This document shows, one piece after another, positions 8,554-41,210 of a stretch of 64,000 bases of DNA. The stretch's first letter is position 1. Each line of letters starts with the position of its first letter. The position numbers were made by a program, and so were the translations under genes. The stretch lies in the IMG/VR virus record IMGVR_UViG_3300014204_000145, positions 26,834 to 90,833 of that record; one strand, given 5' to 3'. The notes beneath the pieces are model-generated. The model made no database searches. It worked only from the letters and a program-made list of their open reading frames with translations, and was not told the DNA's origin. The DNA is from a virus (Duplodnaviria; Caudoviricetes).

Positions 8554-9183
8554 CTAAGGTTCTAAAAATTTTTGTGTTATAACTGTTTTAACTTCTTCAT
8601 AAGAATAGGGTGTAGGATTAAAGAAACCATCTTTTGTTCTTGTATCAACTCCAACATCTATTGCATTCCATGAGGGATGTTTATAAGAATTATGACAGTG
8701 TCCATATAGATGAAAACTGCCTCTTTCTTTACCTGCCCATGAAGCCATAGGGAAATGACACATTACAATATCTTGTTCTGCACCTTTAGCATCTTCATCA
8801 TAAACTTTTATCTCTAATATATCACAAGTTTCTAAAGGAGAAGCTTTAGCTGTATTATTTTTAATAAAACATTTATCATGATTACCTCTTATATGGTATA
8901 TTTGACCATTAAGTTGGTCTATGATTTGTTGATATTTATGAGGAGAGTCACTCCATATAAAGTCTCCTAGCATAAATACAGCATCTCCATCACTCACTGC
9001 ATCATTCCAACATCTTATCATTAAACTATTCATATCTTCAGTTGTAAGGTGTTTAGGCTTTTTAGAACCTAAATCCTTATAACTAAAGTATCTCTTAGCA
9101 TAATCCAAAATATTTGCGTGGTGAAAATGTGGGTCGGACAGAAAAAATATTCTATCTTTATTAAAAGGTGTTTTTATTCTCAT
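8554..9183 (-). CDS. Calcineurin-like metallophosphoesterase
   Basis: LSDPHFHH, LGDF, RGNHD, LYGHCH motifs. Confidence 0.85.
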   Translation of the reverse strand: MRIKTPFNKDRIFFLSDPHFHHANILDYAKRYFSYKDLGSKKPKHLTTEDMNSLMIRCWNDAVSDGDAVFMLGDFIWSDSPHKYQQIIDQLNGQIYHIRGNHDKCFIKNNTAKASPLETCDILEIKVYDEDAKGAEQDIVMCHFPMASWAGKERGSFHLYGHCHNSYKHPSWNAIDVGVDTRTKDGFFNPTPYSYEEVKTVITQKFLEP

Positions 9184-9574
9184 AATTTTTCAATTTTCTT
9201 AGTAAATATTTTGAATTCTTAGACTTACCTAATAGGTTTGTACCTTTAAATAAGTAGTATATAGCATCTTTTACATACATCTTATATAAACCATGTTTTT
9301 CAAAAAGGTTTATTTGATATCTGTACATTCCTCTTCTAACTATTATAGGAGTTCCAAGTTTAATGTTTAACTCTAAACCTAACATAGCAAAATCAAAAGA
9401 TATCATACCATATTGACCTGTATAACATACAATTCTTCTCTCTGAAGATTTGACATAACTTAAACTAACTAAGAATTCTTCAAGGTCTTTTTTAGTTAAT
9501 TTTTTATATTTAACTATCTTATGTTTACCTATTTCCATAAATTCTAATTGTTTTCCAATATCTATCAAAGCCAT
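9161..9574 (-). CDS. Hypothetical protein
   Basis: 137-aa ORF in operon; real start may be a downstream ATG. Confidence 0.55.
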   Translation of the reverse strand: MALIDIGKQLEFMEIGKHKIVKYKKLTKKDLEEFLVSLSYVKSSERRIVCYTGQYGMISFDFAMLGLELNIKLGTPIIVRRGMYRYQINLFEKHGLYKMYVKDAIYYLFKGTNLLGKSKNSKYLLRKLKNYENKNTF

Positions 9575-17393: not shown

Positions 17394-17474
17394 AACCCTC
17401 TGCAGGACTCGAACCTACATCTCCCACATGTTGTGGTACTCTAGCCAAAGTTGTTAAACTTGAGTTAAGAGGGT
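17394..17474 (-). tRNA. tRNA-like gene with collapsed anticodon loop (identity undetermined)
   Basis: Acceptor ACCCTCT/AGAGGGT, T-arm GTAGG-TTCGAGT-CCTGC; anticodon arm CCACA-ACA-TGTGG (3-nt loop); enlarged D-loop. Confidence 0.7.
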
Positions 17475-18972: not shown

Positions 18973-19043
18973 AAGGGAGAATGGGACTCGAACCCACATA
19001 TACAACGCCATCATTGCATATTTTACCATTAAACTACCTCCCT
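18973..19043 (-). tRNA. tRNA-like gene with 8-nt anticodon loop (identity undetermined)
   Basis: Acceptor AGGGAGG/TCTCCCT, D-arm GTTT-AATGGTA-AAAT, anticodon arm TGCAA-TGATGGCG-TTGTA, T-arm GTGGG-TTCGAGT-CCCAT. Confidence 0.7.
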
Positions 19044-21341: not shown

Positions 21342-21550
21342 AATAAGTTACTGATGATAAACATCTATATAAAACTAATCTTTTCGCACGTAAGTTCACC
21401 AAAAGATGGTTGAGTACCCGACAGTGTACTAGGTTCCGATGCGCAGTAATGTGTCTTATCTATCTTGTTTTATATTAACACCAACCAATATTCTATGCTT
21501 CTCAATCAATTGAAGCCATCCTGTTTAAGAACTTGGTTCAGTAACTTATT
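21342..21550 (-). ncRNA. Putative multi-helix structured ncRNA
   Basis: 13-bp perfect terminal stem AATAAGTTACTGA/TCAGTAACTTATT plus internal helices; no ORF; strand inferred from context. Confidence 0.5.
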
Positions 21551-21561
21551 AGATTTTAATG

Positions 21562-21634
21562 CAGCAAAGGCTGGACTTGAACCAACAACCTCCTGCAGGC
21601 CGTGCAGGTACTCCGCCAATTGAGCTTCTTTGCT
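21562..21634 (-). tRNA. tRNA-like gene with non-canonical anticodon loop (nominal GGC)
   Basis: Acceptor AGCAAAG/CTTTGCT, D-arm GCTC/GAGT, anticodon arm CCTGC-ACGGCCT-GCAGG (no U33, no purine 37), T-loop TTCAAGT. Confidence 0.7.
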
Positions 21635-21926: not shown

Positions 21927-22100
21927 TTATTCTAATTCTATAGGTTCATCTAACCATGTTAATTGTTTTCCTATAAGTTTTAGTGATGTCCCTTTAGGTA
22001 CATTTATATGAAAACTCATATCCCATAATCCTGGGCCTCTACGAGGTAAAGTATCATAAATATATTCATCACCATCCTCGTCAACTGCTATAAACGACAT
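21927..22100 (-). CDS. 57-aa conserved-type Bacteroidota phage protein
   Basis: Hand-translated MSFIAVDEDGDEYIY...VPKGTSLKLIGKQLTWLDEPIELE. Confidence 0.6.
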   Translation of the reverse strand: MSFIAVDEDGDEYIYDTLPRRGPGLWDMSFHINVPKGTSLKLIGKQLTWLDEPIELE

Positions 22101-22119
22101 AATTTTATGTTTTAATTGA

Positions 22120-22407
22120 TTAATAAATATCTCTTCTATGAGATTTGCTTACTTTTTGCATTCTGTGTTGAGGCTTATTGTATTTATCAGAACTAAATTC
22201 TATTCTTAATTCTGTTTCTGTATCGCACCTAAATACTATTTTACCCACATCACCTTCTCTTATTACAAATCTACCAAGTTTAGAATGGTGTTGACAATAA
22301 TGCTTTCCATTAATAATATGTACAGCATCTTTATCACAAGTAAATTTTTCTTTATAGCCAGAGGAACAACCATAAGGTGTTATTATTTTACTGAATTCAC
22401 ATTCCAT
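22120..22407 (-). CDS. Hypothetical protein with Cys/His cluster
   Basis: 95-aa ORF, CDKDA...HYCQHH. Confidence 0.55.
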   Translation of the reverse strand: MECEFSKIITPYGCSSGYKEKFTCDKDAVHIINGKHYCQHHSKLGRFVIREGDVGKIVFRCDTETELRIEFSSDKYNKPQHRMQKVSKSHRRDIY

Positions 22408-22440
22408 ATTATTAGTAATTTAATTGATTAATAATAAAAT

Positions 22441-23019
22441 AATTAATAATCTGACTCAACATATGATAATGTTGTTACCAGATAGTACCCTTTGACAATT
22501 AGTGGGTTAGTATTAATTATTATAAGAAAATAATAAACAGTAATCTTTACCTTTTAGAAAGGGATAGTCGAGGCCTCGTTTTGAATAAGTATACACTTAA
22601 ACTTCGAAATTTAGTCGGCTTCTCCAAGAGCTATACTTTACTGTTTATTATTATAAGAAAGTAACAAGTAAGGATATTTTTTTACAGTCTTCCCGAGTAA
22701 CTGTTTTACATTGGCGGTTAACTCCAAAAACTAACCTTATCAGTGAAAGTACTCACTTGTCACTATATTTTAAAAATGGTGGTAATAGCTTCAGCACTTC
22801 TGCTCTGAACCCTTTTAAGTTTAAAGTGCAGTTCGGGATACTGCATTACAGTTTTTCATTACCACCATTATTGATAAGTACATGTTTGTTTATAAATTCT
22901 TCGCATTAATATCTTGCGTGAATAACCAGGAATTGACTTTTGGTAGACTTCCTGAACTTTCTTCTACCTACATGGACTATATTTTAAAGGAGCTACTCAA
23001 CGGAACTTTATACTTATCA
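22441..23019 (-). ncRNA. Tandem array of five terminal-stem-closed putative ncRNAs
   Basis: Inverted-repeat-bounded units 22441-22518, 22529-22652, 22660-22764, 22775-22869, 22872-23019 with 2-10-nt spacers; no ORFs in the track. Confidence 0.5.
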
Positions 23020-23050
23020 TAATTCTTATCGCTGTGTTATCTTCACTCCT

Positions 23051-23797
23051 TTATTTCTTTCTATTATTTTCAAACCAAGTGTTAAATCTTTTTAACCATT
23101 CTGCTTCATTCTCTTCATCATCATTACAAGGTTCATAATAAGTTTCAGGATAAGTTATATCTTTACAACATTGCAATAACATCTTTCTAACTTCATCTTC
23201 GGTATAAGTAATTTGTTTTTGAGTTATAATAATACCCCTATCTTTAACTAATAAATCTTGTTCTACAATTGTTACAAATCCGTTTGTTAGTTTAATTTTA
23301 CCAACATTATGGTGTTGTAATCCTTTACCACCAATTTGCCCTGTTGGTATAAATCCACCACTAATAACAGTTGTATGTTCTCTAGCAACTTCAACATCCT
23401 CAAACTTACCACTTGCATTATATTGTTCAATTGCTTTTTGAATATCTTCTGGGGATATTTGGTCTTGAGTTGCTATGATTTTTTTGAACCTGTTAATGCC
23501 TTGAATAGTGTGTACCTTACCATCTATAGGGTTTAAAAATGTTATAGCATCATCGTGAATTTTTTCAACAATTATGATATTATTACCAAAATAAAGTTTA
23601 TCTGCAACTTCAATCTTTTCTTCTGGGGCAAGAGATACGAGTATCAATTCCATTGCTATAGTAGGAGTCTTGATGTTGGAGTCATAATAACCTATTTTAC
23701 CGTTTGACACTATAGAGTGTTTTAATATACAAGGATAAGCTCTATCCTCATTATCTTTTGTCTCAACCAATATAGGTCTTACTTTAATTGTTTTCAT
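23051..23797 (-). CDS. Hypothetical protein
   Basis: 248-aa ORF. Confidence 0.65.
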   Translation of the reverse strand: MKTIKVRPILVETKDNEDRAYPCILKHSIVSNGKIGYYDSNIKTPTIAMELILVSLAPEEKIEVADKLYFGNNIIIVEKIHDDAITFLNPIDGKVHTIQGINRFKKIIATQDQISPEDIQKAIEQYNASGKFEDVEVAREHTTVISGGFIPTGQIGGKGLQHHNVGKIKLTNGFVTIVEQDLLVKDRGIIITQKQITYTEDEVRKMLLQCCKDITYPETYYEPCNDDEENEAEWLKRFNTWFENNRKK

Positions 23798-24156: not shown

Positions 24157-24710
24157 ATTATATAAGTTTAGTTAATTTAAAGTTAAAAACTCTTATTTTA
24201 TGTAACTACTCCTTTGGTTGACTACCACTAAGCATTTATAACCTCCATGTGTATTTTGGGTAGCATAGATGTCAAGTACAATACAGTATTTTCGTGTTAA
24301 TAAAATAAGAGTTATATTATTACAATATTCTGTCTTCACTTTGGGTTCCTCATCAACGAATGTGATGTGAGCCTCCATATGGACTACCACCAAAGGATTG
24401 AACAGTTTTAATTGTAATGATTATAGTATTATGTGTCTGCTATTAAAGTCGCAGATTCGTTTCAAGCTATCACATATTTCACTTCGATGACTGGTTACAT
24501 CTACATTTAATAAGGCATCTCACCTCTTTACACTGACGGTTACAGTCACCTTACATATTTCTACTAAGGCAGGTTTAAGACTTTTTAGTGTGGCTGTTTC
24601 ATAAAAACTAGCTTAAATATTTTTCTTTATAAATTATTAACAAAAGCACATTAACCGTTATGTTACAAACTGATAAATGCTGACTCTATATCTTTTTTGT
24701 TAATATATCG

Positions 24711-25462: not shown

Positions 25463-25533
25463 AAGTCTATACTGGATTTGAACCAGTATCCACATGCATA
25501 GGCATATGTTCTAACCAATTGATATAATAGACT
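25463..25533 (-). tRNA. tRNA-like gene with shrunken anticodon loop (identity undetermined)
   Basis: Acceptor AGTCTAT/ATAGACT, T-arm ACTGG-TTCAAAT-CCAGT; anticodon arm ATATGC-CTAT-GCATGT. Confidence 0.65.
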
Positions 25534-25723: not shown

Positions 25724-25796
25724 TAGTCCATGAAGGAATTGAACCTTCGTTTAATGGTGGAAAACCATTTATCCTAACGAACTAGATGAATGGGCC
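25724..25796 (-). tRNA. tRNA-Glu(TTC), divergent
   Basis: GGCCCATTCATCTAG...AATGG-TTTTCCA-CCATT...GAAGG-TTCAATT-CCTTC-ATGGACT-A; one C-A mismatch in the acceptor stem; no encoded CCA. Confidence 0.8.
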
Positions 25797-39743: not shown

Positions 39744-41210
39744 ATGAATAAAACACAGGTTTCACCGTTACAAATCTATCAATCAAGAGATTTCAGCGGA
39801 TTAACAGAAATGAATCACTTAAACAATGCTTACCTAACAGAACCAGAAAAAGTAGGTTCTGTATTAGCTTACGCTTTTGGTATCCAAGAAAACAACGTGA
39901 TTTCATTACTTACAGGAGGAATCGGTAACACTCTAACGGTAACAAACCGTGAGTATGAGTGGGACTTACATTCTCAAAGTGATAAAGCAATCGAAGTCGC
40001 AGTAGACTCAGCGAATGCAAGTGATGCAATGCCAGGTTACAATGGTCAACCAGTACAGCTTATCTTAGCTGAAAAATGGTTTGAAGTAACTGATAATATC
40101 GTAGGTGACGATGGTGTAACAACTTTACACATTATCTCAGAACCTTACCTATCAGGCAGTGCTTGGGTATACACAGGTGTTTCAACAAATGCAGACCCAC
40201 GTTCATTCGTAGATGCTGACTTATTGAAAATCGGTGCTAGATGGTCTAAAGAATTCTCTTCTGTTGAAGAATATTCTACTAAAGGTGGTGGACATGGTTA
40301 TGCTACTCCATTCAAACTTAAAAATCAATTGTCTACTTTACGTAAAACATATAAAGTAACACGTGATGCTGCGTTAGCTGTAATGGTAATCGAATTATTT
40401 GACCCTGCAGACCCTAACAAATCTACTAAACTTTGGACTAAATTAGCTGAGTGGACTGCTATGGCTTATTGGTACAGAGAAATTGATAAGATGATGATTT
40501 ACTCAACTTATAACAAAAACTCTAGTGGTTATGTTACATTACAAGGTGAGAACAAACGTCCTATCTATCATGGTGCAGGTTTCCGTGAACAAATTTCTCC
40601 TGCTAACAAACGTTTCTATACAAAACTTACTTATGAAATATTAGATGAGTTCTTGTTAGATTTATCGTATGCTGCTAACAAATGGGGTGGTAATCACAAA
40701 TTCGTTGCCTTAACAGGTAAAATGGGTATGCGTGAGTTTGACCGAGCTATTAAAGCACATGCTGCAGGTAATAACATTACTGTAACAACTGCAGGTACTT
40801 TCATCTCAGGAACAGGTGCTGAATTAAACTTCACTGGATATTTCAGAACTGTAACTTTCTTGAATGGTATTGAGTTAACAGTAAAAGAATTTGAACCGTA
40901 TGATGACATCATCCGTAACCGTGAGTTACACCCAATTACTAAGAAACCGATTGAATCTTATAGATTTACAATCTTAAACTTCGGACGTAAAAACGGTAGA
41001 GCTAATATTCGTAAAGTTGCGATGAAAGATTCTGAAATGGCTATGTGGCATGTTAATGGTTCTACAGACCCTTACGGAGGAGTTGCTAAATCAATCGGAA
41101 CTCAGCGTAGTTCAGGTATTGATGGTTATGAAGTTCACTTCTTAGCACAAATCGGTATCATGGTTGAAGACCCAACAAGTTGTGGCGAGTTAATTATGAA
41201 ATTAGCATAA
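39744..41210 (+). CDS. Major capsid protein (HK97 fold, crAss type)
   Basis: 488 aa; EYEWDL, NQLSTLRK, GAGFREQI motifs; followed by a strong terminator. Confidence 0.9.
   Translation: MNKTQVSPLQIYQSRDFSGLTEMNHLNNAYLTEPEKVGSVLAYAFGIQENNVISLLTGGIGNTLTVTNREYEWDLHSQSDKAIEVAVDSANASDAMPGYNGQPVQLILAEKWFEVTDNIVGDDGVTTLHIISEPYLSGSAWVYTGVSTNADPRSFVDADLLKIGARWSKEFSSVEEYSTKGGGHGYATPFKLKNQLSTLRKTYKVTRDAALAVMVIELFDPADPNKSTKLWTKLAEWTAMAYWYREIDKMMIYSTYNKNSSGYVTLQGENKRPIYHGAGFREQISPANKRFYTKLTYEILDEFLLDLSYAANKWGGNHKFVALTGKMGMREFDRAIKAHAAGNNITVTTAGTFISGTGAELNFTGYFRTVTFLNGIELTVKEFEPYDDIIRNRELHPITKKPIESYRFTILNFGRKNGRANIRKVAMKDSEMAMWHVNGSTDPYGGVAKSIGTQRSSGIDGYEVHFLAQIGIMVEDPTSCGELIMKLA

Follow-up and report, generated by a model that had tools for sequence, protein, structure and literature searches.

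An apparently undescribed modular array of five end-paired non-coding units in a crAss-like phage genome

Five stem-closed units in one intergenic gap

The stretch of DNA analyzed here (the window, 64,000 nucleotides) comprises bases 26834-90833 of a 90,833-bp IMG/VR virus record, IMGVR_UViG_3300014204_000145, which carries direct terminal repeats and has a GC content of 31%. The phage is uncultured; it encodes a crAss-type terminase and major capsid protein, and its capsid protein shows at most 43% identity to those of GenBank phages, with all matches being Crassvirales of Bacteroidota. From the start of the window to about 27.5 kb, all genes are located on the minus strand, including the tRNA-like genes of that half. 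A 643-nt gap free of open reading frames (ORFs) at 22408-23050, between ORF248 and ORF95, contains the array that is the subject of this study. On the minus strand of 22438-23019 (about 580 nt), five helices of 11, 15, 13, 13 and 11 bp were found end to end, each closing a unit of its own (U1 to U5). The gap has no minus-strand ORF of at least 30 aa, in agreement with the non-coding character proposed in a first-pass annotation of this DNA. We conclude that the array is real and apparently an undescribed modular phage RNA array, because U1 and U3 recur in very distant phages, U1 with compensated base changes. The units and their two neighboring genes are as follows:

22120-22407, minus strand: ORF95, downstream of the array, with its start codon 30 nt past U1
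22438-22521, minus strand: U1, 84 nt, closed by an 11-bp perfect terminal helix (22438-22448 with 22511-22521)
22522-22528, minus strand: U2/U1 junction, 7 nt, UUCUUAU (ATAAGAA on the plus strand), part of a 14-nt direct repeat
22529-22652, minus strand: U2, 124 nt, closed by a 15-bp perfect terminal helix
22653-22659, minus strand: U3/U2 junction, 7 nt, UUCUUAU, part of the 14-nt direct repeat
22660-22764, minus strand: U3, 105 nt, closed by a 13-bp terminal helix with two G-U pairs that exist solely on this strand
22765-22774, minus strand: U4/U3 spacer, 10 nt
22775-22869, minus strand: U4, 95 nt, closed by a 12-bp perfect terminal helix plus one G-U pair
22872-23019, minus strand: U5, 148 nt, with a terminal helix of 9 bp perfect, or 11 bp with one G-U pair
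23051-23797, minus strand: ORF248, upstream of the array, whose first base lies 31 nt past the ORF248 stop codon

The first-pass annotation had described five units, each closed by its own inverted repeat, and these proved to be the sole five helices of at least 11 bp in the gap. Its spans for U2, U3, U4 and U5 stand, as do the 15-bp stem of U2 and the 9-bp stem of U5 (11 bp when the G-U pair is counted). U1, however, extends over 22438-22521 with 11 perfect pairs, not over 22441-22518 with 8 bp and an extension; the stem of U3 has 13 bp with two G-U pairs instead of 10 bp with one, and U4 gains one G-U pair. The spacers, given before as 10, 7, 10 and 2 nt, are 7, 7, 10 and 2 nt from U1 to U5, so that only the first was corrected. 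The ATAAGAA noticed in two of them lies inside an exact 14-nt direct repeat at 22516-22529 and 22647-22660. Together with one 13-nt pair, this is the sole direct repetition within the array. The closing helices have no sequence in common, and the idea that the units are paralogues of one another was dropped. With no one-unit repeats at a regular period and no sequence relation between units, a CRISPR array and a tandem repeat, both dismissed at the outset, were rejected here as well, together with a type III antitoxin RNA.

The arrangement was compared with randomized and genomic sequence by scanning for chains of helices of at least 11 bp with no more than two G-U pairs. At this threshold the minus strand of the gap has exactly five helices, forming a single chain of five, whereas 300 dinucleotide shuffles had on average 0.41 helices and a longest chain of 1. 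The longest chain on the plus strand was 2. No other chain of more than three was found on either strand of this phage and nine other crAss-like genomes (about 0.86 Mb), and a chain of three in genome G006 was set aside, as its units overlap small ORFs. Perfect inverted repeats of at least 12 bp at 30-200 nt spacing are confined in this genome to non-coding gaps. The helices tile the gap far beyond chance, and they do so strand-specifically.

In the minimum free energy fold of the whole gap, the five units appear as separate domains. The pair probabilities of the closing helices in an 861-nt context of the minus strand are 0.95 for U2, 0.94 for U4, 0.89 for U1, 0.79 for U3 and 0.12 for U5, the weakest unit of the five; in the same context of the plus strand, those of U3 and U5 are about 0. 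The interior of U1 consists of a 6-bp helix (AUCUGG/UCAGAU) and two variable hairpins. U4 (z -4.3) contains a 6-bp hairpin whose 7-nt loop, AUCCCGA, is similar to an anticodon loop, and the interior of U2 is less structured on the minus strand than its shuffles (z +1.5). An interleaved H-type pseudoknot of 6+6 bp in U5 (22927-22968, minus strand) was discarded as being at chance level, as it occurs in 54% of shuffles and at a genome mean of 2.3 per 643 nt.

G-U pairs extend the helices of U3, U4 and U5 on the coding strand, and no helix is extended by such pairs on the opposite strand. Among 30 such units from 7 genomes, the coding strand gained G-U pairs in 11 units versus 4 for the other strand (39 versus 7 pairs), a comparison with some bias, the units having been defined on the coding strand.

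The gap has no standout promoter-like or terminator-like site, and the Bacteroidota -7 promoter motif and sigma-70 sites were tested and dropped as signals that would define the units. Antisense matches of the units to the phage's own genes and inverted repeats bracketing ORFs were likewise tested and dropped. A 16-nt motif, TTATTAATCAATTAAA, is present on the minus strand at 22419-22434 and 22111-22126, in each case 12-14 nt ahead of a start codon, that of ORF95 and that of the next small ORF; with only two exact copies in the window, it was rejected as a general promoter. No function could be assigned to the flanking proteins by Pfam and PHROG profile scans.

Separate recurrence of the units in distant phages

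Relatives selected by capsid similarity (58-90% identity) share neither the array region nor the flanking small genes, and for this reason we regard the region as hyperplastic. Blastn searches with the region found no homologue in 50,697 GenBank phages, nor in 31 IMG/VR relatives selected by capsid similarity. Two distant records, G032 and G033, were retrieved by searching with the ORF248 protein family, and both have tiled stem-closed units beside the homologous gene. Just upstream of the ORF248-family gene, G033 (99.7 kb) has three units with lengths of 85, 100 and 105 nt, stem lengths of 13, 11 and 14 bp, and 8 and 7 nt between them; the middle unit bears the terminal helix and trailer of U3. 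In G032, units of 134, 89 and 82 nt are followed by a tRNA-like gene. A third genome is JAGYLS010000001.1 (L126, 88.5 kb), a contig that is filed under the Atribacterota metagenome-assembled genome (MAG) Candidatus Oleincola secundus. Besides its module array it has homologues of ORF248 and ORF119 and a match to a crAss-type capsid, and by these features it looks like a crAss-like phage genome, not host DNA.

The U1 family has three members, namely the window, L097:11462-11543 (the 82-nt unit of G032) and L126:3698-3873. In these sequences 3 of the 11 closing pairs differ on both sides, A-U in one being G-C in another, and all cells of the alignment are paired (100%), so that U1 shows the compensatory pair changes by which structured RNAs are recognized in homologues. 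Judged by these three sequences, pairing in the terminal helix is maintained by selection. The inner helix AUCUGG/UCAGAU, including its G-U pair, is invariant and an unpaired CUAAC motif is kept, while the two hairpin regions vary and one member has an insertion of about 90 nt.

The U3 family is more widely distributed. Six sequences have the arms AGTRACAAGTRA and TACTTGTTACT and the TTCT trailer in invariant form. They belong to four lineages, namely the window, G033, the crAss-like genome G034 (25% capsid identity) and a group of phages of about 35 kb without a crAss capsid. Homologues of U3 are present in at least five other contigs, and units with a homologous terminal helix and trailer are found at the following places:

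G033, G034 (L112), L105/L109/L118/L122 and L126: U3-type units, the copy in L126 (JAGYLS010000001.1) being a further one

The sole differences in the arms are the two G-U pairs of the window, which are A-U elsewhere, and the 13th pair of the helix is G-C, C-G or U-A depending on the lineage. The interiors, on the other hand, are unrelated between lineages. The flanks are asymmetric, with UAUA 5' of the unit and UUCU 3' of it, and the units are oriented in the same direction as the adjacent genes in all four readable cases.

The comparison with L126 also concerns U2. In the window, U2 is located between U3 and U1 with the junction TTTCTTATAATAAT on both sides, at 22516-22529 and 22647-22660. 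In L126, TTCTTATAAT comes after a U3-type unit, with a U1-type unit and an ORF248-family gene immediately beyond it, and U2 is absent; the UUCUUAU of the U2/U1 junction also trails the U3-type unit there. The difference is a clean one-unit indel at a conserved junction. The array had been called cassette-like in the first-pass annotation, which proposed looking in relatives for gain, loss or reordering of whole units, and both points are upheld. By these comparisons the modules are separate evolutionary units: U1 and U3 recur, each conserved separately, in distant phages as members of different arrays, and with U2 it is the whole unit that is gained or lost.

The searches over IMG/VR and public metagenomes with U1 and U3 were exact-pattern scans. 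A looser U3 pattern gave 22 matches in IMG/VR, most of them chance, and a match in a Nitrospirae MAG was an unrelated palindrome of heptamer repeats. Scans of IMG/VR with the U5 pseudoknot and U1 core patterns found nothing, and a scan of metagenomes with the U4 arms gave 6 matches, all of them unrelated coding repeats of Asn-Gly-Gly-Asn. Covariance models built from the single U4 sequence and from two U1 sequences detected no new homologue in 31-34 records, the U4 model having been run on 31 relatives.

The ORF248 family has an invariant N terminus, MKTKxVRPxLVE, and C terminus, WFENNKKK, with members at L090, L091 and L126:3896 onward; several paralogues or fragments are present in G032. Its genes adjoin U3-type or U1-type units in G033, G032 and L126, and such a gene is found within 3 kb of U1- or U3-type units in three of the five genomes carrying these units. 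The family is absent from G034, G035 and G036.

The array is not the only one of its kind in this genome. The approximately 10 kb around it form a patchwork of small ORFs, five minus-strand tRNA-like genes and more non-coding gaps, two of which contain further tiled domains:

24157-24710, minus strand: tiled domains of 63, 59, 100 and 126 nt with spacers of 3-6 nt, the 126-nt domain having a 14-bp perfect helix
20938-21347, minus strand: tiled domains of 91, 58 and 96 nt
21342-21550, minus strand: stem-closed element of 209 nt (terminal helix of 13 bp), separated by 11 nt from a tRNA-like gene
17394-17474, 18973-19043, 21562-21634, 25463-25533 and 25724-25796, minus strand: five tRNA-like genes (Rfam RF00005, 36-50 bits)

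The 209-nt element is kept in G003 (L049:18640-18843, 204 nt), with ends about 95% identical, the AACCAAGUUC/GAAUAUUGGUU helix in common and an interior rich in indels; a scan of IMG/VR and metagenomes with its end found nothing. Similar tiled arrays, often beside tRNA-like genes, were seen in at least four other crAss-like genomes; the layout is present in G003, G033, G032, G034 and L126. In G034, the U3-type unit belongs to a tiled array of 135, 96 and 113 nt that is followed by a tRNA-like element. The related phage G006 (92 kb) has repeats of another kind at L070:17660-18300: small ORFs are flanked there by direct as well as inverted copies of CTCGCCGAGCGTTAGGGCTC, a GC-rich motif some 20 nt long.

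The tRNA-like genes of the phage have canonical acceptor and T arms (with GGTTCRA loops), and none encodes CCA. In most of them the anticodon loop is abnormal, with 8 nt, 6 nt, or 7 nt without U33. Four of the five begin with an A1-U72 pair followed by U or UC; similarly, four of the five units begin with an A paired to the last U, and then U.

Two side observations were made elsewhere in the genome. A 137-aa ORF of the early/middle module (9164-9574, minus strand) has a short Pfam match to the Crassvirus major capsid protein over residues 18-64 (E 2.6e-7), the true capsid gene of the phage being at 39744-41210. Just outside the window, among replication genes and 20 kb from the array, there is a LAGLIDADG homing-endonuclease gene (L069:5430-6173, genome 25427-26173).

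Possible nature and function of the array

The reading that we favor, with roughly even confidence, is a co-transcribed array of small RNA modules, separately conserved and shuffled, in which the terminal helices would aid processing or stability. The five unrelated modules of 84-148 nt would be transcribed from the minus strand with the flanking genes. The terminal helices and the U-rich junctions of 2-10 nt would then be either signals for host endonucleases that release the modules or a protection of the ends, as for tRNAs in a tRNA operon. We propose that the helices direct excision or protect ends because of the anatomy of the units and the analogy to tRNA. RNase P, RNase Z and CCA-adding enzymes recognize the 12-bp stack of the acceptor and T arms; the unit helices of 11-15 bp are close to this stack and may be recognized by these enzymes as well. 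The release enzymes could be RNase P/Z-like, acting on a 12-bp minihelix similar to the acceptor/T-arm stack, or RNase III. Helices of 11-15 bp are short for RNase III, and cleavage by it, as proposed in the first-pass annotation, is conjectural, as are the roles suggested there (protein sponges, antitoxin mimics or guides). Whole modules would be exchanged between distant phages at the U-rich junctions. A conserved handle is combined with a hypervariable interior, most plainly in U3; this suggests that one part carries specificity, and the interior may be a fast-changing payload that probably binds or decoys a host factor.

A bolder version, which we consider doubtful, takes the arrays as libraries of horizontally shuffled RNA cassettes, in which helix and junction would be the common handle for one processing or binding factor and the hypervariable payload of 60-125 nt would act as a decoy, sponge or guide against host factors. 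If it were true, phages would possess an RNA arsenal like integron or CRISPR arrays and built of whole RNA genes, spread over crAss-like phages as well as others, with a link to tRNA-like genes that have lost their decoding role.

Several observations weigh against small RNA modules with functional terminal helices. Domain searches found no RNase III, TROVE or reverse transcriptase gene in the phage. The unit interiors have no excess of structure over shuffles (z -1.9 to +1.5), the closing helix of U5 is thermodynamically weak, and the G-U asymmetry is marginal (one-sided sign test, about 0.06). No homologue of U2, U4 or U5 was obtained in any search made. The U3 arms are kept as sequence, with one covarying pair, and this fits a protein-recognized or DNA-level site equally; compensated changes in inverted repeats, as seen in U1, are also expected in transposon ends.

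These last points lead to the main rival, that the units are miniature inverted-repeat mobile DNA or recombination cassettes, inserted side by side at a U/T-rich target, with ends recognized by a recombinase and with incidental RNA folding. We think it unlikely, although many features would fit. All units have terminal inverted repeats, with arms of 9-15 bp, as do miniature inverted-repeat transposable elements (MITEs); U2 in particular has perfect 15-bp inverted ends and a flanking direct repeat and is missing from the U3-U1 junction of L126. The U3 arms are identical in sequence at about 25% capsid identity and in the non-crAss 35-kb phages around unrelated interiors, the 7-10 nt spacers resemble target duplications, the interiors are unstructured, and the region is hyperplastic, with none of its small ORFs in relatives. 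However, a target-site duplication was seen for U2 alone (TTCTTAT in the 14-nt repeat) and is absent at the other units and at U3-type units elsewhere. A BLAST comparison of the genome with its own non-coding gaps, all of them, and with the array gave no second copy, every unit being single-copy in its genome, which is not expected of MITEs. No transposase or recombinase was found among the minus-strand genes scanned, the LAGLIDADG gene being 20 kb off. The orientation of the units always follows transcription, their conserved flanks are asymmetric, the G-U bias is toward the coding strand, and in U1 the inner helix is asymmetric and unpaired bases are conserved. A single cis-acting structured intergenic region of the ORF248-ORF95 transcript, with helices that stabilize or punctuate the mRNA (as exonuclease barriers or sites of cistron-uncoupling cleavage) and no free small RNAs, seems to us somewhat less likely still, because the modules recur beside different genes. 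They are conserved independently of the flanking genes, in other orders and with other neighbors; 580 nt would be costly as a spacer, and U1 keeps internal helices and unpaired motifs. Such a region would agree with the position of the array, 31 nt from the stop codon of ORF248 and 30 nt from the start codon of ORF95, with the lack of a standout promoter-like or terminator-like site in the gap, and with non-randomness in the helices only and not in the interiors. A weak outer pairing of 7 bp can enclose U5 to U2, though its probability is just 0.02.

It is very improbable that the units descend from tRNA genes by decay or strong divergence, or that they are Y-RNA-like and partner a Ro/TROVE protein; membership in either class is largely refuted. 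The units have no Rfam 15 match even at E <=10, with ROOL, GOLLD, 6S, Y RNA, self-cleaving ribozymes and group I/II introns included, and the Rfam hits at the array are at chance level (E 1.4-5.5), far under the gathering scores. Nor is there a tRNA (RF00005) match at E <=10 in 22000-23500. The neighboring gaps do contain tRNA-like genes with odd anticodon loops, and U4 has its anticodon-like hairpin and is called tRNA-Gly(ccc) by ARAGORN, but this call is poor, appears solely at thresholds of 80% or lower and has no T arm; no unit has one, and the terminal helices are of 11-15 bp, not 7 bp. Y RNAs likewise pair both ends, a Bacteroides control genome has a TROVE gene, and crAss001 carries an early one (PMC10136315). 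In six-frame searches, however, TROVE (PF05731) was absent from the phage and 31 relatives, while control genomes matched, and the five closing helices share neither sequence nor a Ro-binding helix; with no Rfam match in addition, Y RNA and YrlA were rejected. Inverted repeats arising by chance in AT-rich non-coding DNA can be set aside almost completely. Helices of 9-11 bp at 30-200 nt spacing are indeed common genome-wide (148 perfect 9-mers or longer), and U5 alone would not stand out, but a chain of five is absent from the 300 shuffles and from the rest of the 0.86 Mb on both strands, and the arms of U1 and U3 are conserved or compensated in their homologues; the shuffles and the homology refute this explanation.

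Comparison with known systems

Crassvirales are among the most abundant phages known, and the blocks in which their genomes carry short unknown genes and non-coding DNA are unexplained. The phage studied here devotes about 3.5 kb, and its relatives 0.3-3 kb, to tiled end-paired non-coding modules beside tRNA-like genes, and at least two module types are common to phages with about 25% capsid identity and to non-crAss-like phages. We found no described family or system with this anatomy.

MITEs and integron attC arrays are similar in having inverted ends, variable interiors, a size of 80-150 bp, direct repeats as at U2, and arrays of unrelated units. In contrast to them, the units here are single-copy and fixed in orientation with transcription, and neither an integrase or transposase, nor ORF cassettes between units, nor an R''/R' core was found. 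If the modules were mobile DNA, they would represent a new kind of miniature element targeting phage early regions. The PeSL elements of T4-type phages consist of a promoter and a terminator hairpin flanking ORFs, with module exchange at their borders in hyperplastic regions (PMC2839356, PMC4122927). Short conserved stem motifs at module borders and the exchange of whole modules are common to both, whereas here the conserved inverted arms surround 60-125 nt of non-coding payload, with no evident promoter.

Y RNAs and YrlA are about 100 nt long with a long stem of the 5' and 3' ends, often lie several side by side, and have examples in phages. They resemble the units in size, paired ends and clustering, but the units have no Rfam match, no TROVE in the lineage and no common Ro-binding helix. 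In precursors processed by RNase III, such as the rRNA processing stalks, the early mRNA sites of T7 and the snoRNA and miRNA clusters of eukaryotes, helices bracket products that are cut from a common transcript. Helices bracket each unit here as well, but they are short (11-15 bp) and the phage is without RNase III. If the modules are processed RNAs, they would constitute a new, widespread layer of phage-host interaction and a natural case of RNA-gene cassette exchange.

By analogy, the closest functional counterparts appear to be RNAC and RNAD of T4 and the tRNA operons. RNAC and RNAD are small stable non-coding RNAs of unknown role that are encoded among the phage tRNA genes on one strand (PMC3014915, PMC9697503). 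The array differs from these in having no sequence or Rfam relation to them, in its five different units (with more in neighboring gaps), in helices of 11-15 bp instead of 7 bp, and in the lack of a cloverleaf. It shares with them the arrangement of end-paired units head to tail with short spacers, and in this phage the tRNA-like genes themselves share the tiling and the A1-U/U ends of the units.

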